A stretch of DNA of 64,000 nt from Adineta vaga (taxonomy: Eukaryota; Animalia; Rotifera), in assembly GCA_021613535.1 (NCBI GenBank), contig CP075496.1, positions 14,260,001 through 14,324,000 on the forward strand, in the 5' to 3' direction. Shown in pieces: positions 8,926 through 43,966 of the stretch. The position numbers and the translations under genes were made by a program. A model generated the notes under the pieces. It saw only the letters and a program-made list of their open reading frames with translations. It was not told the origin of the DNA and made no database searches. The first letter of the stretch is position 1, and every line of letters begins with the position of its first letter.

Positions 8926-9732
8926 TTATTTTTTACCAACAAGACCAACGAGAGCATTGACACCAGCACCAATAGCAACATTTGTAACTTTGTCTTTAAT
9001 TTTACCCCATAAACCACGTTGTACAGGTGTGAGTGATGCGAAGAATAAATCAATTTCTTGATCAACAACATCGCGTTTGCCAACAAGACCAACGAGAGCA
9101 CTGACACCAGCACCGACAGCAGCATTTGTGATTTTATCTTTGATCTTTCCCCATAAACCACGTTGTTCTGGTGTAAGTGATGCTAAAAATAAACCAATTT
9201 CTTGGTCATCAACGGAACGTTTTCCAAGGAGAAGACCTGCAGCTGCGTTAACACCGGCACCAATGGCAGCATTTGTGATTTTATCTTTGATTTTTCCCCA
9301 TAAACCACGTTGTTCAGGTGTGAGTGATGCTAAAAATTCTTGTGTAGCATCAGCATTGCGTTTTCCAAGGAGAAGACCAGCAGCTGCGTTAACACCAGCA
9401 CCGATGGCGACTGAAGTTATTTTATCTTTGATTTTACCCCATAAACCACGTTGTTCTGGTGTAAGTGATGCTAAAAATTCTTGAGTGGCATCAGCATTCA
9501 CATCACGTTTGCCAACAAGACCAACAAGAGCATTGACACCAGCACCAATAGCAACATTTGTAACTTTATCTTTGATTTTTCCCCATAAACCACGTTGTTC
9601 TGGTGTAAGTGATGCTAAAAATTGAATTTCTGCTTGAAGAAGATCATGATTTACAATTGGTTTTGGCATTGATTCTGAATAAACAGAACCAAAGAAAACT
9701 AAGGCGACGACTAAGCCGATAGGTGCGTGCAT
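8926..9732 (-). CDS. Secreted multi-peptide precursor of five amidated cationic amphipathic (antimicrobial-like) peptides
   Basis: Hydrophobic signal peptide, then five units of [acidic spacer ..FLASLTPEQR] + GLWGKIKDK(V/I)T..A(I/V)GAGV.A..GL(V/LL) + G-KR (last unit G-KK-stop); intronless intact ORF of 268 aa. Confidence 0.88.
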   Translation of the reverse strand: MHAPIGLVVALVFFGSVYSESMPKPIVNHDLLQAEIQFLASLTPEQRGLWGKIKDKVTNVAIGAGVNALVGLVGKRDVNADATQEFLASLTPEQRGLWGKIKDKITSVAIGAGVNAAAGLLLGKRNADATQEFLASLTPEQRGLWGKIKDKITNAAIGAGVNAAAGLLLGKRSVDDQEIGLFLASLTPEQRGLWGKIKDKITNAAVGAGVSALVGLVGKRDVVDQEIDLFFASLTPVQRGLWGKIKDKVTNVAIGAGVNALVGLVGKK

Positions 9733-11128
9733 CCTGCAAAATATATGTTGACAATTAAAACAAAGAAAAGCAACTTCACTGATTATTCTAAATCAATGTC
9801 ACCGTTTATATATATTTTTGTAGAACACAATGCTTTTTTTTTGAGAATGATAACATCTGTTGAGAATAATAGTTTTGATCAATGTTTTTCCACAGCTGCA
9901 TTTCTATCTCATAAAAAAATCTGTATTTTGCAATTATACAGTAAGCTTAATGTTTTTCTAAATATAATTATAGATCATGCGACTTTTTTTGAAAGAGACA
10001 GATAACTATTATCAATAAAATCTCAGCTATATGATTAGTTTCTGAGGATAATTCTCCTTCCATACTCAACTTACTTTCTTCCAAAAGTGAAATACAGAAC
10101 AACACAAGTAAAATAATAGAGAATCTGAAGATATTTTCATTCTCGTTGCAAAATCTAACAATAATTTTACAAGCTTTCATTTCTTTCGAATGGTTTTTGT
10201 TTATAATTCCATATTTGATATGACAAGGTTTGGTTCACTATATTCGTATATGTTGCTTCGCTAACGTGTGGATTCTAAAATTCGTAGTAATTGATATCGA
10301 TGATTTCCTTTTCAAATATTTCCAAATAATGATAAATTTTTCGTTACACAATCAATCTATGATAGAACAATTGATTATATATTTCATGTGAATACTTAGC
10401 AAATTTGATTCGAATTTTTTCACATCGGATTAAAAATATTTTATTATTATAATGATTCATATAATGTATAAGTAAAAGCATATAGTATCGATGTTCTCTT
10501 TTAGAATAGATTTCAACTTAGTATATCAGTAAAAGTATCTATTTCTGTCGTTAATAATATATTGGTGAATACTGCTCGGTAAATTTTTGTACTTAACAAC
10601 CTTTAATATTAGTCTCTATCGATAAAATTCTGCGACAAGAGAAGAGATAATGAATAAAAATCTATACTCAATGATTGTTCGATCGTGTGGATATAAATTT
10701 TTTGTTCATAAAAACTTCAATACTCTTTTTCAGATCGTCTGTCACAAAAACCATCGATAACATATTACCCTCGATATACGAGTAATACTATTGATGTTAA
10801 GGGTGATAAATCTATTGAAATTGAAGATTTATTTTAATTACAAAAGCAATGCTAATCACAATTCAACTTATTTTTAAAATCTTCTGCATATTCTAGTCCG
10901 ACAAGATCTTTTATCTCTCAAAGGTATATTCTTTTAAATCTCTGTAAATTTCGAAACTCCTTTCTTCGAGTGAACAATCATGCGTTAACTGAAATATTCT
11001 TTTTTTTGCGAAATCATGCTCCGCAATCATAAATAATTCAATTTCACGATCAATCAAAACTTTATTTTACTTAAAAATGAAAATGTACATTAAAAAGTAA
11101 ACTATCTTTGAATACGAATGTTGACGAT

Positions 11129-11359
11129 TTATTTCTTGCCAACAAGACCAACAAAAGCATTAGCACTAGCATCGATGGCGACTGAAGTTAATTTATCTTT
11201 GATTTTGTTGAACTAATCACGTTGTTGAGGCGTAAGTGAGGCTAAAATTTGAGCTTCAGCTTCAAGAAGATTCTAATTGACGATTGGCCATGACATTGAT
11301 TCTGATTAAACAAAACCAAAGAAAATGAATGCAATGATCAGACCGATAGGTGCTTGCAT
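11129..11359 (-). pseudogene. Single-peptide paralog of the 8926-9732 precursor, pseudogenised
   Basis: MQAPIGLIIAFIFFGFV*SESMSWPIVN*NLLEAEAQILASLTPQQRD*FNKIKDKLTSVAIDASANAFVGLVGKK*; three in-frame stops; ~400 bp of upstream sequence also resembles 9733-10130. Confidence 0.88.
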
Positions 11360-12080
11360 CTTGCAAAATATTTGTTGAAAAGTAATACCAATAAAACTAC
11401 TCCACTGATGCTTTCGCAGAAATCCTATTGTTTACATATGGTTCTGTTTTGAAGAAAGAATTGCTTTTGAGAAAGGTAACATGTGTTGGGTATTCTTTTT
11501 TTGATCAATGTTTTTCAACACCTGTATATGTATCTCATAAGGAGTGTATGTTCGACGACAAGGCATAGACTTACGACATTTTTCTATTTATAGAGACAGT
11601 TCATGCAATCTTTTGAAAAACAAAGATAAGTATTATTGAAATTTCTTTTGCTTAATATGACATAGGTAAAGTGTTAATTATATGATTGATTTTTTGAAGA
11701 TATTTCTCCTTCCATACTCAGTTTATTTTTTTTCCAAAAATGGACTACACGACAACACAAGTAGAATAATAGAGAAGAAAAATAGATATATATAGATGAA
11801 CATAGACACACGTTTGGAAGAACATCATTGGAATGAATAATATCTGAAGAGATGATAATGACGTAGAGTGAAAGAATGAAAGTTATTTACATAAATAAAG
11901 AAAAACAAACAACGAGAAAGAACATATTACTCTGAAGAGTAGGAAAACGAAGAAGAAAAAGTTATCCAATTTGTAGACAGAAGAGAAGGAACAACTGTTC
12001 AAAATAACAGATCATTTTGTACAATTTGTTTTTGAAAGAACACAAATTTGAAAATATTTATAGATATAGAGATTCAAGTT

Positions 12081-22090: not shown

Positions 22091-24550
22091 TTGATACAAA
22101 AAAAAGAAATTTTATTTGAAAGATGTTCTTTTCTTTTTAATATTCTTTGTCTATTATTAAATTCCGCTTTTTTTCCTTCAATTAAATGTTATTTTATTCT
22201 CTATTCTTCAAGCTTTTATCATTTAAGCATGATTGCGTTTGTCAACCTAATTAAGAGTTTTCTTCTTCTACGGACGTCGTTTTTTCTTTAGGAAGACAAA
22301 CAAGTTTGTCAAGAAAATTACTTTTGAGAAAATAATTTCGACTTATTTTATCGAATAAAAGACACAAATTCTTTTAATACGATTAAAAATCTTGACGAGC
22401 ATATTTTCACACTTCTACGAATGAAATAGTGTGAACAATACCTTGAATTTAAATGAAAACTTTTTAACTAAACGTTTGGATATATTGTCATTCAGTTTTT
22501 TTGTTTCAAATAAATAATTCAGGAAAATATCCACCAATACTTTGTCGATAAAAAAAGGTATATTCCATTTTGTATGACTAACATGAGTTGCATTCATTCT
22601 TTTTTCTAAATACATTTTGTGTGACAAACTGCCTTTAAGCAGAACTTCATCACATTCAAGTACTTTAAGATAATTATTTCAAAGATTCAATAATGAATGA
22701 TTTAATTAACTACTTTTCAAAGTTACATCAACAAATAAAGTACTAAAACCATATAAGAACTAATCTTTTAGAAGCAATTGAATGCATTGTGTAGTGTTAA
22801 CGCCAGTCGTTGTTACTTCAAATTCTTTCCTGTTGAATGTGTCTCTTTTGATCATCATGTCTTCATCATGATATTCTTCTATTATGTCGTGCTATTGTTT
22901 TCGTCTTTGTCTCTTTCTACCCTTTCTTATAAGGCGCAGGCAAGTCAAACTTTAAGTGAAATTTTTTTTTGGGCTTTTTTTCACATTATTTGATAGGGCG
23001 AGAGCTGCTAATCACCAAAATCTACTTTTTAGCCTTAGCAAATACTTCCTTCCAGTCGAAAAACACGAAATACTCGAGAAGTAGTTTTTCGAGGAAAAAC
23101 ACATTTTTTTCAAAATATGTCTTCTATTTGGGTTCGTGCTTTTTGCGACTTTCTGAAAATATTTTTTTCAGATCCAGTATAAAAAACTGAGGTCAGAAGA
23201 GTTGTTATATCGGCTTAAGACCCCAACATTTTTTCAGAGTGGTACTCCGAATCTCTCTGAATGCAATACGCAGAAGTCGTTTTTGTAAACGTATCAAGTT
23301 TTTCTACGTAAGCGATGAAGCCAAGTATTTTATCTCATTCAACTCAACATACCATCAGCTACAAAATTCCGCATTCTTTTTTTTCTTTTCTTTCCTTTGC
23401 TGAAAAAAATCGTTTTTACTGGTGTCATAGAAAAAGGGGAAGGTCATTTTTCAATAAAAAGCTTATTTTTTAGTCGAATCAAGTGAAACTTGTTTTACAC
23501 AAGTAAAAACTGATGGTAAATCGAATACGTACATTTTCGAGATCTCTAGAGGAGCTTCAGGGGTCTCTAGAAAACTCGCCTAAAAAACCATAGGATAACG
23601 ATGTGTCTAATAAGACATGTTTTTGTTTAAGATACTATAGTTGAGGGTGCGGGTACTGAACGAAGCGGGCATCACCCACATCGACCAACACTCACACCCA
23701 CACTCTAGTTAGTTATTAGATTTGAATAGATACTAGGAATCGAGATCGTTCACATGTTTTATCCCTTACGGCCGGATGTTGCCGAATGACAACAAGCCCA
23801 TTCCTTGTTGTTATCGTATAATGCATAATTCATCGTATTATTACAATAGATTAAGGCTTTAACGAAGAAAAATAATCTGAAGTTAGTCCTGCAGTCAGAC
23901 ATTTAGGCTAGTAGCAAATGCGTCATAACGCCTTGAGAGCTGTTTCAGACATGGTCGAGAGAGTTGACCCTTGACTTCAACAAAAGCCATTTTTTACCAT
24001 CGCAGTGCATAGCTTTGTAGTACAATGCATAAAGGTAATTGTCAGCTTAATTGCAGTGCTATATCTCGTGGCTTTCTGAGAAATTTGTGACTAGTGCTGA
24101 CCAAATGTTGCCAAAAGGTAACGTTCGACCGGAAAGGGTTACGATAACTTTTCTTCATTTCAGCATTGTTAATTCGCTTCATTTAAATTCTCACCCTCAC
24201 TCCTCACACTTACTAGCAGTGTTATTTTGGCTCACTGCTCTTTACGTGAATAGTAACTGATACAAACCAATTTAGAAGACGCATCGACTACAACTGAATA
24301 CTCTTCACCTAGCTATTTTCGTGAATTTGATCGTATGAGAGAGAACATGATAAAAACTTTATCTCTTGTGCTATTCAGTGCAAGAGGAAGCGGCGTCAGT
24401 TCTCGATTTATTCACATTATATGGTATGACATTTATACGATTCAAAGTTCGACTATAGGAAGGAGGAAGAGTGAAACCTTATATTCCTCTTAGTACAAAA
24501 CAATCATTGCGGGCCAGTACGAGAAATCATACCAGTGGGAAGTGGTGTGC

Positions 24551-24560
24551 CTATAAAAGA
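24551..24560 (+). promoter_or_regulatory. TATA box of the defensin-like gene
   Basis: CCTATAAAAG about 160 nt upstream of ATG 24713, in a locally GC-richer context. Confidence 0.5.
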
Positions 24561-24712
24561 GGCTCGAACATCCATTTGATTTCGCAGTAATACATCGATC
24601 TTCAAGTCAAACAATAATTGTTGATTCTCAACGTAGCAATAAACGGTAGGATTTTCGATAGTTTCCTCTTCTTTCCATAGTTGCCAATATTCTTGATTTC
24701 CAAGGATAAGTT

Positions 24713-25026
24713 ATGAAGCTCACTCTCATTCTGGTTACTCTTGTTGTGCTGGTAGTCTGTATGTGGTCGACCGGTAAGTCACTGAATATTGTGCTAGAAA
24801 CACTTTTTGAAATAATTTCATCTGAATAAATTCTCATATATCATTCGCAGAAGCGGCGCCATCGCTCGAAGACGGTAATGATGAAGTAGCCCATGCGCGA
24901 AGCAAGCGCTGGACATGCAATAACTGGACAGGCGATTTTTTGTGCGCTGGATGGCCGGGTTCATGGCGTTGTCGGTGCGGTGCGGCCTGCTATGGTGGAA
25001 CTTGTACGTGCAGACGCTGTGTCTAA
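24713..25026 (+). CDS. Prepro defensin-like 8-cysteine peptide (2 exons, 78 aa)
   Basis: MKLTLILVTLVVLVVCMWST|E (phase-1 GTAAGT..CAG intron 24774-24850) AAPSLEDGNDEVAHARSKR-WTCNNWTGDFLCAGWPGSWRCRCGAACYGGTCTCRRCV*; AATAAA near 25125. Confidence 0.88.
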
Positions 25027-26127
25027 GTGGAGCGAACAAGGCCTTGGCAACTATTCATTCTCCCCATTCACTCTAATTTCCTTTTATTCATGTAACTCGT
25101 AATCTTCCTGCCTGTTAAATCCACTAATAAACATGAAGGCATCAATATACAGGATACAAGTAGAATCGGTGGACTGATTTGTTTATGAAAGAGTACACTG
25201 GAAAAAAAAACAGTAGCATGTAAAACCCAAAAAGGGTATTTGAAAGTGCAACGGATAATAAACCGTAACAAACCGTATTGTAACATCTCCCAAACCCTTT
25301 CGAATATCTTACAAAACCATTATTTTAACCGTATATTATGACAAAAAACCCTGCAGAAGGGTTTATGATATCGTTTATTAAATCTATTTTTTCAATAAAA
25401 AAATCATTCTTCCAGGGTTTCAGATAGGGTATTAAAGTATCATCAACCCTAAAAGGGTATATTATTCGTTGCACTTTCAAAAACTCTTTAAGCGTTTTTA
25501 AACTGTTTGGAATACCCTAAAATACGCTGTGTATTCCTGAAGTAACCATATTTGATAATCACTATTATATGTTCATATACGAATACAATCGTTTTATGAG
25601 TCATTTTTGACGTATGTATATCGTAGCGGGGTATTCAGAAGCATTCATAAAAGAACTTTATACCTGTAATGAGTATTCCAACACCCAGTCAATGGTGATC
25701 CATACCTAATAAGGGTACTTGAAGTTTGACTTGCCTGCACCTTACATATAGAGTTGTTTTTTCTCTTTTTCGCTAGTATTTCTTGTTCTCTTCCCAATAA
25801 ACACAGTCACTTTTATCACTTATCGTTAGATACGATTGTCTTGATTTTTCGTAGTGAGATTTTTCGATATTCTACGATACAAATCTATTGGAGGTTGGAG
25901 ATTCTACCTTTACATTTTCCATAATGAGAACCTTACACTGTATACCATTCATCTTTTTGTCATTATTTCAATTAATATTGATATGTTTCAAATCTTCAGA
26001 AGACAATTTTCTATACGAATTTCACAATTGTTTTTGTTTTAAATACAAACGAGAAAGAAGAAAATACATTTGATTTCTTACAAAGCAAATAAAATAAAGA
26101 CTAAAGTTTCTTTCGGAAAATAAACTG

Positions 26128-27806: not shown

Positions 27807-28000
27807 TGCTCGTTTCTGGAAACAAAATAGATGAGAAATATTCAATCTGATATCGAGTTTATTCTCAGTTAGTTCTTCTCTTTTTTTTTGTATAAAACAA
27901 GAAATAATAATATATAATACAAAGACAAACAAAAATAACGAAATAAAAAATTGTTTCTTCTTCAGGATTTCAAATACAATATAAAAACAAAACAAAATAA

Positions 28001-29270
28001 TTAACAAATTTTAAACAAATAAATACCAAGAAAAATAAAAGAAATAACAACAGTGAAAAGAAAAATATAAGCATCGACAATATGAAATGAATATGTCTTC
28101 GATAAAGATGTTGTTGATGTACTTATCGAACGATTTAATCGACCTGATGAATATTTTATTAATGAACCATCCTATAATGAAAATCAATTGAATCTTTTAT
28201 ATTCTATTAAATGAATAATATTACTCTAATAAAAGAACGTTTATTTTCATCATAATCATTATCTTGTGGAATAATTCTTCGTTGAAGTTGATTTTCACAT
28301 TTGATAAATGATGAAGATGAATTATCGTTAATATCCTAAAAAAAAGAAACAATAATTTTGATTTCAATTAGATTTTCATGTTTGTTGTTTTTTCTACCAA
28401 TGAATGACGAACAGTTGGTAATGGTAAAAATGGATTTGATACGAATTGAATTGTTTCTTCATTATTTCTCTCCTCGGAATTGATTTGTTTATCTAATTGT
28501 GGTGTTTGCTAAAAATATATTCAAATTATGATTTGTTTTCTTTTAGAAATTCAAAAATTTACCCAAACATTGGGATCAAAACGATCACGATTTATTGGTG
28601 TTAATGGACGTTCATTTTGTGTATTAAGTAATGGTTCATGTTCATCAGATGATTCAATATTTTGTTGTTGTTCTTCATTTAATGGTACATGATGATCCTT
28701 GATTTAAAGAAAGAATTGTTTAGATAATAGAATTCTTTTTTTCTTACGAAAAAGATATAATCAGGTGGTGTTCCTTGTTGTTCATCATCAATTGTATTTG
28801 TTGAATGATGTTGACGAGAAAAACTTGTACTACTTTCTATTAGATAAAAGTTCTTATTAACATAATAAGAAGAGATAATATGAGATAAAAACATACGTCC
28901 TCGTTCTCGTTTTTGTTGTCGAAGCTAAATTTGAGAAAAAAAGTAAAGAAAAGATTTGAATAAATTTTTTTTAAAATGATTTTACTTTCACTGCTGAATA
29001 AACATAAGCTGGTTCACGACGTAAATCAATGGCAAAAAGACGTTTATCACTACTTAGTAAATCAAGTAGTGATCGATAACCTAATAAACGGTAAGGTATT
29101 TCTGCATTTTCATGTCGTTGTCGATAATAACGAAAAAGTTCAGCTTGTGTTAAATAACCACGTTTACAAGTTGTGATGTATGAATGAAGTTCATTCATTG
29201 TTTCACAATAGATACGTGGATCAATTGGTATTAAATGAGTTGGAGAAGTCGAAGAAGAAGAAACAGACAT
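28001..29270 (-). CDS. LOTUS-domain protein with C-terminal transmembrane (tail) anchor
   Basis: ELHSYITTCKRGYLTQAELFRYYRQRHENAEIPYRLLGYRSLLDLLSS; last exon ...FHIVDAYIFLFTVVISFIFLGIYLFKIC*. Confidence 0.78.
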
Positions 29271-29959
29271 GAGGAGAGAAGTTTTCTTTTACTTTTTAAT
29301 GAGAAAACAGTTCGATGGAATTGTAATGAACGATGGAAATATGTGCCAAGTAGATATTTGGTACAAGTTGGATATTTAATGAATTTTACCTCTATTAGAA
29401 TTCTCCTCTATGCTAATAAACACATTAAAATATTAATTCAACAAGATTTTCTAGAATAAATTCTGTCTAATTTAAATCAAATAAATAATTAAATAAATGC
29501 AATTGTGCGCCATCTATGTCAGAATATGGAAATCAACTCTAATCAACAACTGAATGATCCTGTGGTTTAACGTCGGTTTAAAATTTCTAAAAAGAGTGAT
29601 CCGGATTTGTAGAGTTAACTTGTCGTAGAAGTCCAGTTCTTCTTAAAAGAGCTTCTTATTTCATTTCACGGAGTTTATGAACTTGAGTTCATCGACTATA
29701 AGCAGAAGAATAAATGATAATTTGATGTTTCATCTTCAATAGAAGTTTCTAAACGACGGAATACTACTATAGGATAGATATGAATTTTCAAAGAATCTCT
29801 TCCTCTTCAGAACCCTATAGTCTGATGGTTTTTTTATATAATGAATGTCTTTGTATGGTGACGATAGAATAATAATCATGAGCTTTGATTATCATTCTCT
29901 TTTAACTAAATTATTGTTTTATGTTCATATTACTCGATCTTGGTAACATTAGATAGAAA

Positions 29960-32170
29960 ATGATTAAGTATAGACTAAAATCTTATTCGTTGTTATTGAT
30001 TTTCTTTAGATGATATTGAACAATATTCGAATAATTCATTGATTTCTTTCAAATTCAATTCAATCATGCAACATCTTATCTCTTCTCAACAATACAATCA
30101 AGCTCTCGACTTGTTCGATACAGAACATAAACATTATAACTACAAAACTAACTGCTTATCAAAATGGAATTCGTATTCATCAACAATTATCATAGAAATC
30201 ATTAGAAGATCCATTTCTTCAGTAAATATTATCTAAGGAAAAAATGATTTTTGATAAAATCAAACTTCTTCTTTCGTTCTTTGTCAGTGAAATGTCATCG
30301 AATTGATGAAGCTTTTCAAATATTTTCAAATGTTAAGAAAAAAATGATATTCATGTATGGTGCTATATGCTTAAAGGTTTGTCGATTTCTTCTTCTTCTA
30401 CGGAATTTCAATCATCACCATTTGATAATTGTAGGTTATCTTTCGAATAATATGCCAGAAAAGGTTATTGAATTATATGAAAAAATTTCTATCAAAGTTG
30501 ATGAAATGATCACGACTTTGTTATTTAATGCTTGTGCTAAACTTTCGAATGAGTATTCAATTCGAATTGGAAATCATGTTTTAAATCGATTACCGAAATC
30601 TTTTCTTCAACATCGAAACCTTCTTCATTGAACTATTGATATGTTGATGAAATTTGGGCAAGTTGAAGATGCCGAAGATTTCTTTAGACAAGTTAAAACA
30701 TTCGATTCAACTATCTATGGAACAATAATGAATGGTTATAAAATAAATAATCAACCATTTGAATGTTTGTCAATCTTTGAAGAAGTAAAGAAAAAGAATG
30801 TTGAAATTAATATACCTATAGCATTAGCATTAATTGGCGCATGTGCTCATTTACAAAATAATCTTCGATTAAAATCATCATTAATTGATATGTGAGTATC
30901 TTTAATTTAGTTTTATGTAAAAAAAAACAATTTATCATTTTAAAATTTCATAGGGGAAGTCAGGTGATATAAATCAAGCTAAACAAATATTTCAATCAAT
31001 TTCTCAACCGGATATTGTAATTTATTACTCGATGAGTAATTATTTCGTACAATTTATTTCGATTTGAACTTTTAGTTGTTTTTTTTTAGTAAATGTTTAT
31101 GCACGGAATGGAATGGGATATGAAGCAATTGATTTATATAAACAAATACCAGATAATATTCGTAATACAAAATCACATGTATGTGTTTTGAGCGCATGTT
31201 CTCATTCAACTCTGATTGATCAAACTCGAACTATTATCAATGAAATTAACAATAAAACAGAAGATGTTTTTATTACAATGGTTTGTTTATTTTATATCAA
31301 AATGTCTTTTATTCTTCATCATTTAGATCAATTGTCTTAGTCGTGTAGGAACATTTACTGAAGTACAAGACTTAATTCATATCTATGAAAAATTTCATTC
31401 ACCTTCTGTTATGTATGGTTAGTTATTTATTTATTGAACAGAAATAAATATGAAAATTTGTTTCTATTAATTCTAGTCGCCATTCTATCAGGTACTCGAA
31501 ATCATCATCAAGTTGATCTTTCAAAAGATTTATATATCGAATGATTAATTTATTTCCCGAACAAAAATCAACATTAATTGCTGCTTCTGTTCTTCTATCG
31601 AATATTCATTCATCGATAGGAGATAATTAACAAACACAAGAAATACGATTAAATCGAATAAAACGATTTGGAACACAAATGAAAATTGGATTATCATGGA
31701 CTGAAGTTAATGGTGAAATTATGGTAAGAAATATTACAAATGCATATGAATGTAAAATGTTTGTATAGAAATTTATAGCTCATGATCGATCTCATCCTCG
31801 ATCAAAGGAAATCTATGATGAACTTAGTCGACTATCGAAGAAATTAAAAGAACACGGTCATGAATATGATTCAAGATGGTGAAAGTATCGAATCAATCTT
31901 ATGTGGTCATAGTGAAAAGCTTGCTATTGCATTTAACTTTATTCAACAACCTCGACCATCATTTATTCAAATTACAAAAAACCTTCGTGTTTGTGGAGAT
32001 TGTCGTAAGTGAAAAAGTCAATTTATGAAACTATTAGTAATTTTCTTTCTATAGATCGTGCAACAAAGATGATCGCTAAGATTCGACAATGTGAAATTGT
32101 AGTACGTGATGCCAATCGTATTCATCATTTCTCAAGCCATGGACAATGTTCTTGTCAGGACCATTTCTAG
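29960..32170 (+). pseudogene. PLS/DYW-type PPR protein pseudogene (copy A)
   Basis: PPR repeats, GLSWTEV, AHDRSHPRS, CGHSEKLA, KNLRVCGDC|H, IVVRDANRIHHF..CSCQDHF*; stops at 30629-30631 and 30893-30895; 23-nt deletion near 31875. Confidence 0.9.
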
Positions 32171-32440
32171 TTTTTTGTTGATTTGATCATTGATTAATGA
32201 AGAAAGAAGGGCGAGGATGTGGGTGAGATTTATGCGTAAATATTTTACCCTTACTTTCACATTCTCACGCATCCATCAAGTATGTTTTGTCACTGTTTTC
32301 TTTCATGACTGTTCATTTGCTTGAGAAAGATGGATTAAAATCTTGCTCAACTTTATTTTCATGATCACATTCATTTGTTGAGAATGATTTACAAAAGCGA
32401 AAAGATATCCAGTGATATATTAATATGAAAAAATAAAATT

Positions 32441-33760
32441 TTATTCCGGAATAGGAACTAGTTCATTTATTGTTGGTGTATTGTCGTTTGAAGGATCTGT
32501 ATGAGAAGTGCGCAATTTTAGTTTGATTGGTTCTCCACTATTTTGAATAATATTTGTTAATTCTTCCATTAGTTCGTTTGTAACATCATGCATTGATGTA
32601 TTATCATCATGAATTGAAATAATAAATCGAACATGAGACGATGCATTATTGAATTTTGAATATTTTATAGAATTTGTTAATGATAAGTTTGTTTGTGTTG
32701 GTACTATTGGTAAAATGAGTCCACCTGTTAAAGTTCTTCTACTTGCACTTAATCTTTTATTGATAAAATCTTGCTTTTCATCTTGTTCAGTGGTTGAAGA
32801 GTCAATTGCTGATAAAATTTGTTCAGGAAAGAATTGCTTTCGATTATAAACACGTTGATAACGATCAACAAGAACAGAAACTAGCATACCACTCATGGCA
32901 ACACCACAAAAAGCACATGCACATGCAAGAATTCGACCAATTACTGTTACAGGATACATATCACCATATCTAATATATAATGAAAAACAATATCAGTGAA
33001 ATAGTTATACAATGAATTTACCCAACTGTTGTAATAGTTAAAATTCCCCAATAAGTTGCTTTTGGTATTGAATCAAAAACGTTTGAATCAACATCTTGTT
33101 CAACAAAATAAACTGTAGCACCAAAAAGAAATCCCATTAAAGTTAATATAACAATCATAATAATAAAATCAATAAATGATTCTTTCAATGTTGAACTAAG
33201 TACACGTAATGTTTTTAATCGTTTAAATATTAAATAAACTTTAAATACACGTAGAAATCTCAGGATTCGAAATACTCTCAAACCAACAAAACCATTTCCA
33301 CTTAAATCTGATGTTTTATGAACTAATGCTAAACTTAAAAATACAAAATAAGGTACAATAGCACCTAAGTCAATCCAATTAAATATTGATAAAAGGAATC
33401 GATAATAGGATGGTGTACTTATCAAACGTAAAAGAAATTCAACTGTAAAATATGATACACAAATTGTTTGTATAATAAAAAATGGTGAAGAAAACATTGT
33501 TGAACAAATTGGTATATCACCTCCGATTACTGATCGATTTTCTTCTTTTTCACATAATGTATTCCATTTATTATTATATTCAGGAATTGTTTCAACAGCT
33601 AATTCAATACATGATAAAACAGTTAATGTCATTGAGATAAAATGAAGAATTTTAGCAAACATAGAATGTTGAGGATATTCTAAATAGAACCAAATATATC
33701 GACGCCATAATAAAGTTGGTAAATGAATATATTTTACAATAGAAACATTTTCCAGTTTAT
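32441..33760 (-). pseudogene. 5'-truncated voltage-gated K+ channel (copy A; lacks T1 domain)
   Basis: Nearly identical to 42022-43342 but cut at the duplication breakpoint 33761. Confidence 0.88.
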
Positions 33761-33786
33761 TGGGATAATGTACTTAAGATTAATAT

Positions 33787-37110: not shown

Positions 37111-37528
37111 TTATTATCTTAAATAATAAAAAACCTAGCATTCACTTATCACTTCTTGAAATTAAATATATGATGATCAATTTCATTATTATATCAGACA
37201 GAAGAAAGTTTTCAATTGAAATAAACATACACTGTTTCTATCAATCAAATTCATGTTTCAAAATCTTTATAACTTTTCGTTCGTATTAATTATTGGTTTA
37301 GCAGTGATTGAAGTGGTTCTTTTATTAAATACATGGGTTCTGTTTACTGCAAACAAGATAGATCGAATAAAAATATAAATATCGAGTTTATTCTCAGTTA
37401 GTTCTTCTCTTTTTTTTGTATAAAACAAGAAATAATAATATATAATACAAAGACAAACAAAAATAACGAAATAAAAAATTGTTTCTTCTTCAGGATTTCA
37501 AATACAATATAAAAACAAAACAAAATAT

Positions 37529-38693
37529 TTAACAAATTTTAAACAAATAAATACCAAGAAAAATAAAAGAAATAACAACAGTGAAAAGAAAAATATAAGC
37601 ATCGACAATATGAAATGAATATGTCTTCGATAAAGATGTTGTTGATGTACTTATCGAACGATTTAATCGACCTGATGAATATTTTATTAATGAACCATCT
37701 TGAGAATGAAATAGAATTCTTTGTTGAAGTGATTGATATTGATTTTCACAATTGATGGAATTTGATGAAGATGAATTATCATTAAGATCTTGCAAGAGAA
37801 AATTCTAACACAAAATAAAACTTTCGTCTGAATGAGATTTACCAATGAATGACGAACAGTTGGTAATGGTAAAAATGGATTTGATACGAATTGAATTGTT
37901 TCTTCATTATTTCTCTCCTCAGAAGGCATTTGCTTATTTAATTGTGGTGTTTGCTAAAAAAAGGTTTTCATCAAATGATTTCTTTTTTTTTTGTTTCAAA
38001 GAATTTGAAAGAATTACCCAAACATTGGTATCAAAACGATCACGATTTCTTCGTGTTAATGGTTCATGTTCATCAGATGATTCAATATTTTGTTGTTCTT
38101 GTTCATTTAATAGTACATGATGATCCTAAAAGATTGATTTTCATAACAAAATCAATAAATAGTTTTGATTTTTACAAAGAAGATATAATCAGGTGGTATT
38201 CATTGTTGTTCATCATCAATTGTATTTGTTGAATGATGTTGACGAGAAAAACTTGTACAACCACCTTCTATTAGATAAAAGTTCTTATTAACATAATAAG
38301 AAGAGATAATATGAGATAAAAACATACGTCCTCGTTCTCGTTTTTGTTGTCGAAGCTAAAATATAAAATAGAACAAAAGTATTGATGAAATTTTTCTTGA
38401 AAGTCTGATTTTACTTTTTTATAAACATAAGCTGGTTCTCGATGTAAATCAATGGCAAAAAGATGTTTATCACTACTTAGTAAATCAAGTAGTGATCGAT
38501 AACCTAATAACCGATAAGGAATTTCTGGATTATCATGTCATTGTCGATAATAACGAAAAAGTTCAGCTTGTGTTAAATAACCACGTTTACAAGTTGTGAT
38601 GTATGAATGAAGTTCATTCATTGTTTCACAATAGATACGTGGATCGATTGGTATTAAATGAGTTGGAGAAGTCGAAGAAGAAGAAACAGACAT
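37529..38693 (-). pseudogene. LOTUS-TM paralog with premature stop (copy B)
   Basis: YYRQ*HDNPEIPY: CGA>TGA at 38540-38538 relative to copy A. Confidence 0.8.
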
Positions 38694-39410
38694 GAGGAGA
38701 GAAGTTTTCTTTTACTTTTTAATGAGAAAACAGTTCGATGAAATTGTAATGAACGATGGAAATATGTGCCAAGTAGATATTTGGTACAAGTTGGATCTTT
38801 AATAAATCTTACCTCTATTAGAATTCTTCTCTATGCTAATAAATACAGTAAAAGATTAATTCAACAAGATTTTCTAAAATAAATTCTGTCTAATTTAAAT
38901 CGAATAAATAATTAAATAAATGCAATTGTGCGACATCTATCTCAGAATATATAAATCAAGTTTAATCGACAACAACTGACTGATTCTATGGTTTAACATC
39001 GCTTTAAAATGTCTAGAATCATCTCTATAGTTCTAAAAAAGAGTGATAGGGATTCGTAGAGCTAACTTGTCGTAGCCGTCCACTTCTTCTGAAAAGATAT
39101 TCTTATTTCATTTCACGGAGTTGATGAACTTGAGTTGATGAACTTGAGTTGATCGACTATAAAAGCAGAAGAACAAACGATAATTTGATGTTTCATCTTT
39201 AGAAGTTTCTAAACGACGGAATACTATAGAATAGATACGAATTTTCAACGAATCCCTTCCTCTTCGGAACCCTAGTCTGATGGTTTGTTTCTATTACGAA
39301 TGTCTTTGTATGGTGACGAGAATAATAAACCATGAGCTTTGATTATCATTGTCTATTAAATGAATAGTTTTATATACATATTATTCGATCTTGGCAACAT
39401 TGGATAGAAA

Positions 39411-41751
39411 ATGATTAAGTATGGACTAAAATCTTATTCGTTGTTATTGATTTTCTTTAGATGATATTGAACAATATTCGAATAATTCATTGATTTCTTT
39501 CAAATTCAATTCAATCATGCAACATCTATAATCTCTTCTCAACAATACAATCAAGCTCTCGATTTGTTCGATAAAGAACAAACATTAGCTATAAAATTAA
39601 TTGATTATCAACGTGGTATTCGTATTCATCAACAATTATCATCGAAATCATTAGAAGATCCATTTCTTTTAACATCATTAATTCATTTCTTTAGTAAATA
39701 TTATCCAAGGGAAAAATGATTTCTGACAAAATCAAACTTCTTCTTTCGTTCTTTGTCAATGTAATGTCATCGAATTGATGAAGCTTATCAAATATTTTCA
39801 ACTGTTGAGAGAGAAAATCTCTTTACATATGGTGCAATGCTCAAAGGTAAACATTTAATCTGGCTTTTTCTGTGAATAATTTTATCAATATTGAATTATT
39901 CTTAAGGTTATCTTTCGAATAATATGCCAGAAAAGGTTATTGAATTATATGAAAAAATTTCTATCAAAGTTGATGAAGTGATCACGACTTTGTTATTTAA
40001 TGCTTGTGCTAAACTTTCGAATGAGTATTCAATTCGAATTGGAAATCATGTTTTAAATCGATTACCGAAATCTTTTCTTCAATATCGAAATCTTCTTCAT
40101 TTAACTATTGATATGTTGATGAAATTTGGGCAAGTTGAAGATGCCGAAGATTTCTTTAGACAAGTTAAAACATTCGATTCAACTATCTATGGAATAATAA
40201 TGAATGGTTATAAAATAAATAATCAACCATTTGAATGTTTATCAATCTTTGAAGAAGTAAAGAAAAAGAATGTTGAAATTAATATACCTATGGCATTAGC
40301 ATTAATTGGCGCATGTGGTCAACTTGGCATGCGTTCTACTTCGAAAAAGATTATCCAATATATTTCACATTTACAGAATAATCATTCAGTAAAAGTTACT
40401 TGGATCGATATGTGGGTAAGAATTTTGTTCTAAATTGTTTAAGTTCTCTAATGATTATGTCTTGTTTCATTTTTTTCGACAGGGTAAATCAGGTAATATC
40501 AATGAAGCTGAAAAAATCTTTCAATCCATTTTGCAGCCTGAGCTTTTCAGTTATACTGCCATGAGTAATAAGAAACGAAGTGGTTTCTTTTCATTAAATA
40601 ATTTGTCATTGTTTAGTAAATGCATATGCACGAAATGGAATGGGATATGAAGCCATCAAAATATTTGAACAAATGCCGGAGAATATTCATGATTCAACAA
40701 CATATATATGCGTTTTGAATGCATGTTCACATTCAGGACTCGTTGATCAAGCTCGCAATATCTTCAAGAAAATTCCAAGAAAAACAGATTCTATTGTTAC
40801 TGCAATGGTTTGTTAATTGATTATGACTGAAACAAAATATTATTTAGGAAGAATTTAGGTCGATTGTGTTAGCCGCATGGGAATGTTTGATGAAGCACAA
40901 GAATTAATTAATGAATATGAAAACTCCAATGCTCCATCTTGGGCCATGTACAGTAAGTTATGACTTTGTTCAACACTAAGTAAAAGGCTAAATATCATTG
41001 TATTCTTATGTTTTTAAAAGTGGCCATATGATCAGGTGCTCGAAATCATCATCAAATCATTCTTGCAGAAAAAGTGTATAAGTGAATGAAAATTTTATTT
41101 CCTGAGAGAGATGAAGATTTTATTTCTGCGTCTATTCTTATATCTAATACTTATTCTTCTGTGGGAGATTCTCAATCAGCTCAAGAAGAACGAATGAAAC
41201 GCACCAAACAATTTGGTAATAATGTCCAAATTGGATTATCATGGACTGAAGTTAATGTTGAAATTGTGGTAACAAAATATTTGATGCTAATTTCAAATAT
41301 GTATGAATATCCTTCTTCTTTTTAAGAGATTTAAAGCTCATGATCGATCTCATCCTCGATCAAAGGAAATCTATGATGAACTTGAGCGAATATCGAAGGA
41401 ATTAAAAGAACATGGCTATGAATATGATTCAAGTTGGATTACTCGTCCAATTCAAGATGGTGAAAGTGTCGAATCAATCTTATGTGGTCATAGTGAAAAG
41501 CTTGCCATTGCATTTAACTTTATTCAACAACCTCGACCATCATTTATTCAAATTACAAAAAATCTTCGCGTTTGTGGAGATTGTCGTAAGTGATAAAGTC
41601 AATTTATGAAATTATTAGTCATTTTCTTTCTATAGATCGTGCAACAAAGATGATCGCTAAGATTCGACAATGTGAAATTGTAGTACGTGATGCCAATCGA
41701 CTACATCACTTTTATACAAATGGACAATGTTCTTGTCAGGACCATTTCTAG
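39411..41751 (+). pseudogene. PLS/DYW-type PPR protein pseudogene (copy B)
   Basis: Intact DYW-like domain (HSEKLA, CGDCH, CSCQDHF) but in-frame TGAs near 41029 and 41083 and an altered acceptor near 39758. Confidence 0.88.
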
Positions 41752-42021
41752 TTTTTTGTTGATTTGATCATTGGTTAATGAAGAAAGAAGGGCAAGGATG
41801 TGGGTGAGATTGATGTGCAGACATGTTACCCTTACTCTCACATTCTCACGCATCCATCAAGTATGTTTTTTTACTGTTTTCTTTCATGACTGTTCATTTG
41901 CTTGAAAAAGATGGTTTAAAATCTTCCTCAACTTTATTTTCATGATCACATTCCTTTGTTGACAATGATTTACAAAAACGAAACGATATTTATTGATATA
42001 TGAATATGAAAAAATAAAATT

Positions 42022-43966
42022 TTATTCCGGAATAGGAACTAGTTCGTTTATTGTTGGTGTATTGTCGTCTGAAAGATCTGTATAAGAAGTGCGCAATTTT
42101 AGTTCGATTGGTTCTCCACTATTTTGAATAATATTTGTTAATTCTTTCATTAGTTCGTTTGTAACATCATGCATTGATGTATGATGATCATGAATTGAAA
42201 TAATAAATCGAACATGAGACGATGAATTATTGAATTTTGAATATTTTATAGAATTTGTCGATGATAATTTTGTTTGTGTTGGTACTATTGGTAAAATGAG
42301 TCCACCTGTTAGAGTTCTTCTACTTGCACTTAATCTTTTATTGATAAAATCTTGCTTTTCATCTTGTTCAGTGGTTGAAGAGTCAATTGCTGATAAAATT
42401 TGTTCAGGAAAAAATTGTTTTCGATTATAAACACGTTGATAACGATCAACAAGAACAGAAACTAGCATACCACTTATGGCAACACCACAAAAAGCACATG
42501 CACATGCAAGAATTCGACCAATTACTGTTACAGGATACATATCACCATATCTAATATATAATGAAAAACAATATCAGTGAAATAGTTATACAATGAATTT
42601 ACCCAACTGTTGTAATAGTTAAAATTCCCCAATAAGTTGCTTTTGGTATTGAATCAAAGACGTTTGAATCAACATCTTGTTCAACAAAATAAACTGTAGC
42701 ACCAAAAAGAAATCCCATTAAAGTTAATATAACAATCATAATAATAAAATCAATAAATGATTCTTTCAATGTTGAACTAAGTACACGTAATGTTTTTAAT
42801 CGTTTAAATATTAAATAAACTTTAAATACACGTAAAAATCTCAAGATTCGAAATACTCTCAAACCAACAAAACCATTTCCACTTAAATCTGATGTTTTAT
42901 GAACTAATGCTAAACTTAAAAATACAAAATAAGGTACAATAGCACCTAAGTCAATCCAATTAAATATTGATAAAAGGAATCGATAATAGGATGGTGTACT
43001 TATCAAACGTAGAAGGAATTCAACTGTAAAATATGATACACAAATTGTTTGTATAATAAAAAATGGTGAAGAAAACATTGTTGAACATATTGGTATATCA
43101 CCTCCGATTACTGATCGATTTTCTTCTTTTTCACATAATTTATTCCATTTATTATTATATTCAGGAATTGTTTCAACAGCTAATTCAATACATGATAAAA
43201 CAGTTAATGTCATTGAGATAAAATGAAGAATTTTAGCAAACATAGAATGTTGAGGATATTCTAAATAGAACCAAATATATCGACGCCATAATAAAGTTGG
43301 TAAATGAATATATTTTACAATAGAAACATTTTCCAGTTTATTTATTTGTGATAAAGCATTAGGTCCTAAATCAAAAAATGAAACTTCTTCTAAAAATGTA
43401 TCTAATGGAACATAATCTGGTCGACGAAGACGTCCACTTGATTGATAATAATAAAGTATTGCTTCAAAACATGCTCGATGACGATCAAAGAAATATTCCT
43501 TTTCTTCGCTATTCCAATAATATTCTCGTTTTTGTTCATTACCCAATAATGTATTTGGATAATTTTCAAGTGTAGATAAATGTGTTTGATAACGATTACC
43601 ACTGACATTAATAGTGACGATATTGTGTTGTTTATCATTTTCAATTTGTTTGAATTGTGAATGATGATCATGTGCTGGTACATGAATTAAACTATCACCG
43701 TCACGAGCCAGGAAATTTCTATAGACAAAAATAATCATTTAAAGTTTTCATTAGAAATTGTATTACTTGAAAATACTCCGTTGATGTGTTATTGGAAGTG
43801 CTAAACTACGTCGTTTTTTAGTAACGTTTTGTTTTAAACTAAAATAATATATTGAATAGAATAATTTATAAATTTTACTTTGTTTTTTCTTTTCAACGAA
43901 CCGAATAAATTTCCGTTGTGCACTAGTTTCGTTTGAATATGAAGATTGACGCTTTTGATTATTCAT
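42022..43966 (-). CDS. Shaker (Kv1)-family voltage-gated potassium channel
   Basis: T1 domain (VTINVSG..FFDRHR..FEAILYYYQS.GRLRRP), S4 LRVFRILRFLRVFK, pore TTVG|YGD; S6 lacks PVP. Confidence 0.93.

Follow-up and report, generated by a model that had tools for sequence, protein, structure and literature searches.

The gene described here lies on the forward strand of a 64,000-nt stretch of Adineta vaga DNA (contig CP075496.1, positions 14,260,001 to 14,324,000), hereafter the window. Its coding region runs from an ATG at 24713 to a TAA ending at 25026, and the gene as a whole consists of three exons. The window is AT-rich (GC 0.292) and has short introns; its ordinary animal-type genes code for the gamma subunit of ATP synthase, for a Kv channel, and for proteins of the NHL, PPR, helicase, and BRCT kinds. 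The base composition, introns of 59-77 nt, and expanded LRR, NHL, and PPR gene types suit a bdelloid rotifer, and 19 of the 20 runs that contain the stretch share one organism code. On the reverse strand, positions 8926-9792 hold a single long ORF with a hydrophobic leader and five tandem units, each pairing an acidic spacer with a peptide that is rich in Lys, Gly, and Ala and likely amphipathic. These peptide units end in G-K-R or G-K-K, which we take to be an amidation/cleavage-type signal. The ORF resembles a multi-copy precursor of linear antimicrobial peptides, its Pfam matches being driven by the repeats only, and a shorter paralogue on the same strand (11130-11400; 77 % over 261 nt) has an in-frame stop where the peptide unit starts. 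Further along, 27882-33773 and 37410-43738 are the two halves of a tandem duplication, at a spacing of approximately 9.5 kb, of a Kv-type channel gene plus PPR-like sequence, 75-100 % identical piecewise.

A TATA-box-like sequence (24552-24559, forward strand) stands approximately 32 nt 5′ of the likely transcript start. It is followed on the same strand by a 5′ UTR exon of approximate start (24584-24645), present in RNA contigs and with no upstream ATG, and by a 59-nt intron of the 5′ UTR with GT..AG ends (24646-24704). The first coding part (24713-24773) is separated from the remainder by a second GT..AG intron, of 77 nt and in phase 1 (24774-24850). An AATAAA is found at 25126-25131, and the two longest RNA contigs stop at 25151 and 25162. 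At the other end, run X17 has a loose adapter-like end just before 24584, and two other contigs begin at 24520 and 24552. The TATA-like box, the end before 24584, and the AATAAA bracket a complete transcript of approximately 450-500 nt.

The gene is spliced and transcribed. Contigs from all four RNA-type runs, drawn from three studies and labelled 'RNA' by an automatic guess, lack the 77-nt intron, which is also skipped in one 151-nt soil metatranscriptome record. The contigs of all three DNA runs retain both introns, with no gap across the 77-nt intron. The 59-nt intron is spliced out in three of the four RNA-type runs, the contig from the fourth beginning 3′ of it. An earlier, sequence-only reading of this DNA had placed a phase-1 intron at 24774-24850, and when the junction was checked the spliced contigs confirmed it. 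That reading had also remarked that the ORF track misses the gene and, without splicing, the reading frame does hit a stop within this intron. Since a spliced transcript exists and no close identity to a described non-defensive peptide family was found, the reading stands on both points. The 5′ UTR intron and an inverted-repeat element that encloses the gene are additions to it. At the locus there were no Rfam matches, and a search for enrichment of kappaB sites found none.

Some variation was seen between runs. At 24936-24940, DNA runs X2 and X3 carry three substitutions within five bases, two silent and one that replaces an aromatic residue conservatively at position 10 of the mature part; of these, just the two silent ones are present in the RNA record from soil. 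DNA run X1 has 11 differences across a contig of 2,477 nt, none of them listed in the coding part.

The predicted product is a prepropeptide. A signal peptide, as first proposed, is predicted from the first coding part; judged solely by hydropathy, its best 11-residue mean is 3.6, and the values for 12 of 12 homologues are 2.3-4.0. It would route the precursor into the secretory path. The predicted propeptide (24851-24909) ends in the furin-type site RSKR (24898-24909), after which, to go by the motif, a furin-type protease would cleave. It had been described as acidic, and acidic it is, although mildly so, with four D/E and with all three K/R inside the cleavage site. The predicted mature peptide of 38 aa (24910-25023, with the stop codon to 25026) contains the eight Cys, four Trp, and four Arg already noted, has a net charge of +3, and has a Cys spacing of 8-8-1-3-4-1-2. 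The window has one instance of a basic site with, after it, 25-50 residues that include eight or more Cys and then a stop; 40 block shuffles produced none. Four disulfides would be expected to form, predicted as I-V, II-VI, III-VII, and IV-VIII after the mollusc and nematode defensins.

The whole gene is inside a non-autonomous terminal inverted repeat (TIR) element of 2,811 bp (22932-25742; GC 0.376), recognised from its TIRs, TA flanks, GC, and depth; approximately 1.6 kb of it precede the gene start and 0.6 kb follow the gene end. The left TIR of 26 bp (22932-22957, forward) matches the right TIR (25717-25742, reverse) at 24 of 26 positions. A TA adjoins each end (22930-22931 and 25743-25744), likely a target-site duplication as related repeat copies in the DNA runs join their flanks by a single TA. 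In the TIR control, there were two matches in the window and none of 100 shuffles had two; a weaker control by block shuffling gave a best value of 25 against 26 for the real pair, over 30 shuffles. Short TIRs with a TA on both sides make the element Tc1/mariner-like, such TIRs and a TA duplication being the marks of TcMariner elements in the available text of PMC8277862. A further mark of the type is a DDE transposase, or else an autonomous partner that has the same ends; none of the 27 ORFs of at least 40 aa within or overlapping the element contains a transposase domain.

The element is the GC-richest block of its size in the window (at most 0.334 elsewhere), the fitted GC change points fall at 22780 and 25910, and its unique upstream part, with a GC of 0.386, is richer than any of the 38 windows that lie outside it and have no ORF (at most 0.366). 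Contigs from the DNA runs bridge both junctions, and the summed contig depth is approximately 2-3x near both ends and approximately 1x, the level of the flanks, inside, so that by contig depth the ends appear multi-copy and the interior single-copy. In all three DNA runs there are also contigs that join both flanks across a single TA, without the element. With just 20-23 letters on the short side, a likeness of 80, and a sequence unlike the window flank, these contigs are taken to be related uninterrupted repeat copies and not a proven empty allele. Within the element, 25222-25498 is a nested, MITE-like inverted repeat (43-nt arms, 84 %), multi-copy according to contig joints and raised depth. 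Approximately 210 nt at 23063-23281 are skipped by other contigs in all three DNA runs, which hints at either an insert nested there or copies of the left arm that differ. The element is itself nested in a further multi-copy repeat, which is divergent and has an elevated GC (22780-22929 and 25745-25910), with an intact ORF in neither flank. The gene may have been captured by the element or, alternatively, have inserted into a resident one. We infer that capture, together with the promoter, by a non-autonomous Tc1/mariner-type element of the Pack-TIR type is likely; the enclosing element could then copy or move the gene.

Searches for relatives identified 25 additional mature domains, two of which are near-duplicates, making 26 with the window peptide. 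These came from word-index searches in successive rounds, which yielded 2, 10, and 13 clusters in turn, from scanning 1.84 billion representatives with a profile (20 matches at E up to 0.001), and from a metagenome scan (three loci, L001-L003, out of 112 candidates). The counts leave out P0036 (a spurious repeat), P0040 and P0041 (incomplete Cys sets), P0023 (a fused model), P0029 (an outgroup defensin), and redundant or partial records from Rotaria and other clusters. Where a source is named, it is a bdelloid rotifer (Rotaria sordida, Rotaria sp. Silwood1, or Adineta steineri), the spider mite Tetranychus urticae, or a nematode (Aphelenchus avenae, Panagrolaimus davidi, or Meloidogyne enterolobii); Rotaria sordida has several near-identical records. 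Against the seven named members, the window mature peptide has identities of 66-78 %, the value being 76 % for the T. urticae member, which carries the automatic UniRef name 'Invertebrate defensins family profile domain-containing protein'. No TIR-like pair surrounds the gene at the three metagenome loci, two of which start at the gene itself. An intronless member with a 7-residue loop is present in L002 (1066-1359), where there is also a perfect 26-nt hairpin at 2458-2514. P0023 is a kinase-like model fused to a second Aphelenchus copy, likely a gene-model error that masks a tandem paralogue. A prokaryotic origin was rejected, the three loci on prokaryotic contigs being out-of-frame chance matches over unrelated genes, and none of 42 candidates on viral contigs is a family member.

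All eight Cys are invariant across the 26 mature domains. In the core set (16 relatives, 118 pairs), the mean identity of the mature part is 73 % (65 % without Cys), against 17 % for the prepro part. The gap between Cys2 and Cys3 is 8 in 22 of the 26, 7 in one, 4 in one, and 3 in two, and in a second subfamily the loop is rich in Phe and Pro and Cys4 is followed by a gap of 4. R-x-x-R is found immediately before the mature part in 17 of the 25 relatives; the three named bdelloid relatives are without a dibasic site. This is a real, expressed member of an unnamed eight-Cys peptide family common to rotifers, mites, and nematodes, three phyla in which it lies outside the coverage of Pfam and of the CS-alpha-beta reference array. 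A new scaffold had been put forward, and it remains a candidate; the spacing is missing from that array, but as one member of a cross-phylum family the peptide is no lone novelty. In the open-access text searched, no description of the family was found by motif, accession, or topic. Nor does the family appear in the available text of nematode and springtail antimicrobial peptide surveys, or any account of it in the accessible parts of PMC10506718, PMC13525654, PMC10051947, PMC6431247, and PMC5718144, and the main text of a bdelloid infection study (PMC11258130) contains neither 'defensin' nor 'cysteine'. In the portion seen of its annotation paper, T. urticae is a species for which defensins were searched and the authors 'failed to identify' them (PMC5474072); it nonetheless encodes a member of this family.

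The CS-alpha-beta superfamily's CSH motif is a C-x3-C (C3 and C4 of the array) paired with a downstream C-x-C (C8 and C9), according to the available text of PMC5116183. The window peptide has C-x8-C in place of C-x3-C, no core member out of 16 contains the motif, and CxxxC is present in two of the 26 members of the wider set. The last four gaps in the family (3-4, 4, 1, 2) fall inside the range of mollusc and nematode defensins, and the tail that defines this subgroup is present (eight Cys, an end of C-x-C-x2-C, and preceding gaps of 3-5 and 4-12), in agreement with the original comparison of the CxCxxC tail to four-disulfide CS-alpha-beta peptides. The full spacing is absent from every row of the Tarr array, in which MGD1 is 5-3-6-3-7-1-2 and the sponge and tardigrade rows contain 4-1-2, and the family-invariant gap of one residue between Cys3 and Cys4 is found in none of its mollusc or nematode rows (PMC5116183). 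An apparent match to MGD1 in the span from Cys2 to Cys4 was discarded, as this span varies within the family. Comparison with profiles of the CS-alpha-beta families had been recommended at the outset and did not bear out the assignment; no Pfam defensin family was matched at E up to 10 (15 members) or at E up to 0.1 (newer members), and there was no match in Pfam or PDB for single members or for profiles. An EGF-like or LDL-a module was also rejected (PDB matches at just E 0.23-9.9 and 2.3, and a misfit in the number of Cys before the hairpin).

Among the 20 profile matches, the sole protein of a curated family with a real alignment is P0029, an arthropod-type defensin (8-3-9-4-1). It aligns colinearly and, against the all-member profile, outscores 982 of 1000 Cys-fixed shuffles (18 of 1000 score as high). 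The link is weak at 7.9 bits, being equalled by 181 of 1000 shuffles with the long-loop-only profile and by 136 of 1000 with the short-loop-only profile, and the E-value (4e-20) is too favourable, since five tandem copies and the prepro columns contribute to it. P0029 has five defensin precursors head-to-tail and is possibly an assembly concatemer. The first reading, of a defensin-like peptide with the helix CxxxC replaced, gains from the relatives, whose gaps of 3, 4, 7, and 8 between Cys2 and Cys3 lead back to CxxxC. This series and the members that have CxxxC point to a remodelled CS-alpha-beta defensin as the likeliest origin. The CxxxC helix segment would, in most members, be widened by approximately five residues into a Trp/Gly/Pro loop, and these natural variants allow the proposed disappearance of the defensin helix to be tested directly. 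The window peptide is not filed as a CS-alpha-beta member, although from its sequence an origin there is favoured.

The same precursor, probably still defensive, might instead fold as a knottin/hevein-type cystine knot (I-IV, II-V, III-VI, plus VII-VIII), its defensin-like tail being convergent; this has some appeal but is unlikely. The consensus of the inhibitor cystine knot (ICK), C-X2-7-C-X3-11-C-X0-7-C-X1-17-C-X1-19-C in the accessible part of PMC10779620, is fitted by the first six Cys in 16 of 16 members tested once a loop 1 of 8 is permitted (the maximum is 7), although in its strict form it is fitted by none of the 16, and it is very loose. A freely variable loop between Cys2 and Cys3 would suit a knot, as would the lack of a helix in two AlphaFold models, which are of low confidence (pLDDT 48.9 and 51.1) and differ from each other in their hairpins; the CS-alpha-beta fold has an alpha-helix and two antiparallel strands. 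Foldseek and VIA-align returned nothing for the second, low-confidence model and are uninformative. With the mite member as query, the top ESM Atlas neighbours are spider knottins (ICK toxins) at 0.75-0.81, a lead only, as this is below the 0.9 bar and no higher than is reached by a third of shuffled proteins. The toxin alternative raised by the sequence-only reading has this below-threshold language-model resemblance as its sole specific pointer. Eight-Cys heveins of 38-39 aa do combine a knot with a C-terminal VII-VIII bond (PMC9127739, as far as its text was available), but the family has C-x-C rather than CC at III-IV and is without the S-x-aromatic-G-aromatic chitin site. The two CxxxC relatives and the colinear P0029 point to a defensin and not to a knottin, and therefore, despite the near fit to the ICK, a remodelled CS-alpha-beta origin is favoured. 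They also weigh against a fold unrelated to either group, in which all of the likenesses would be chance traits of Cys-rich peptides. The missing Pfam and PDB matches and the unlisted spacing would be consistent with such a fold; the graded series towards CxxxC and the colinear defensin alignment make it very improbable.

On balance, it is somewhat more probable than otherwise that the gene in the TA-flanked inverted-repeat element encodes a prepropeptide, predicted to be secreted, whose product likely serves innate defence and likely derives from the four-disulfide CS-alpha-beta defensins. An antimicrobial role is likely. The low net charge of the family (0 to +4) and its near-invariant T-G-D, Gly, and aromatic positions suggest that the mature peptide would bind a constant molecule of the microbial surface (a precursor of the wall, a lipid, or a glycan) and not act through charge-driven lysis. 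Conservation this strong is unusual among antimicrobial peptides, which counts against a role in defence. A secreted signalling or receptor/channel-binding peptide (a hormone, pheromone, or toxin-like ligand), held constant by its animal target, would account for the very high cross-phylum conservation and the low charge. R-x-K-R processing is prohormone-like, and spacing of the Cys alone cannot tell defensins from channel toxins (PMC5116183, in the text available). Signalling is nevertheless improbable, since the named members are scattered (three bdelloids, one mite, three nematodes), no named match came from insects, Caenorhabditis, or molluscs, and the near-identical Rotaria sordida records and carriage by a mobile element would better suit defence genes.

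The distribution of the family suggests horizontal spread. In a tree of 17 mature domains (38 columns), the mite and Panagrolaimus members group together with support of 95/88. The GC3s of the window gene is 0.49, against 0.08-0.25 in nine neighbouring ORFs and a maximum of 0.286 over 171 stretches of the host. Scattered named hosts, a foreign base composition, and the one mite-nematode branch are thus suggestive of transfer, to judge from these sequence comparisons. Against this, three metagenome homologues have a GC3s of 0.38-0.49, one of them adjoining a gene at 0.11; as they share it, the family as a whole may tend towards high GC3. In addition, genes this small frequently go unannotated. 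Constraint tests did not reject the bdelloids and the window gene together (p-AU 0.30) or the nematodes together (p-AU 0.17), and because groupings consistent with the species are not rejected, we only infer horizontal transfer. The boldest form of the hypothesis is that of a defence family with a remodelled, helix-free defensin fold, passed horizontally among soil and freshwater rotifers, mites, and nematodes, with the copy here still inside the DNA transposon that carried it; this is tentative and rather doubtful. If true, it would be a mobile immunity cassette in animals, and the spider mite, reported to lack defensins, would have a hidden one.

Several known groups of peptides are similar in part. 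MGD-1, the myticins, and ASABF (PMC5116183) are likewise small peptides, secreted as the window peptide is predicted to be, with eight Cys, a C-x-C-x2-C tail, and preceding gaps of 3-4 and 4; the window peptide differs in its Cys2-Cys3 gap of 8, Cys3-Cys4 gap of 1, lack of a profile match, and N-terminal acidic pro part with a furin site. The six-Cys arthropod defensins (Pfam Defensin_2, here P0029) share the signal, pro part, R-x-K-R, aromatic-T-C start, first gap of 8, and C-x4-C-x-C hairpin, whereas the family has two extra Cys and a displaced helix Cys, and the similarity is marginally above that of Cys-fixed shuffles. ICK peptides, Alo peptides, and eight-Cys heveins are alike in size, in Gly/Cys richness, in the near fit to the ICK, and in a possible VII-VIII tail bond; the window peptide departs from them in its loop 1 of 8 and in lacking both a CC pair and the chitin-binding motif of heveins. 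Drosomycin-type antifungal peptides and diapausins are also Cys-rich defence peptides of patchy occurrence over the invertebrate phyla, with Cys arrays that differ from that of the window peptide. Horizontal transfer has been argued for the drosomycin type (PMC9751787, available text); for the window family, in contrast, no non-animal donor was found.

For the element, the closest comparison is with the Pack-TIRs, in which host-type sequence between the TIRs of a TA-flanked element is transcribed, as it is here. In the available text of PMC8277862, where rotifers are unmentioned, Pack-TIR cargo has a median of 224 bp and is mostly expressed in chimeras with flanking sequence. Pack-TIRs are recognised by an identifiable parental copy of the captured sequence and by the same element lacking its cargo; at the present locus, contig depth gives ends that appear multi-copy around an interior that appears single-copy. 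The cargo in the window, unlike that of Pack-TIRs, is a complete three-exon gene with a likely promoter of its own and a poly(A) signal. An entire peptide gene, expressed and enclosed by a TIR element, gives defence genes a concrete route to duplication or to transfer between animals.
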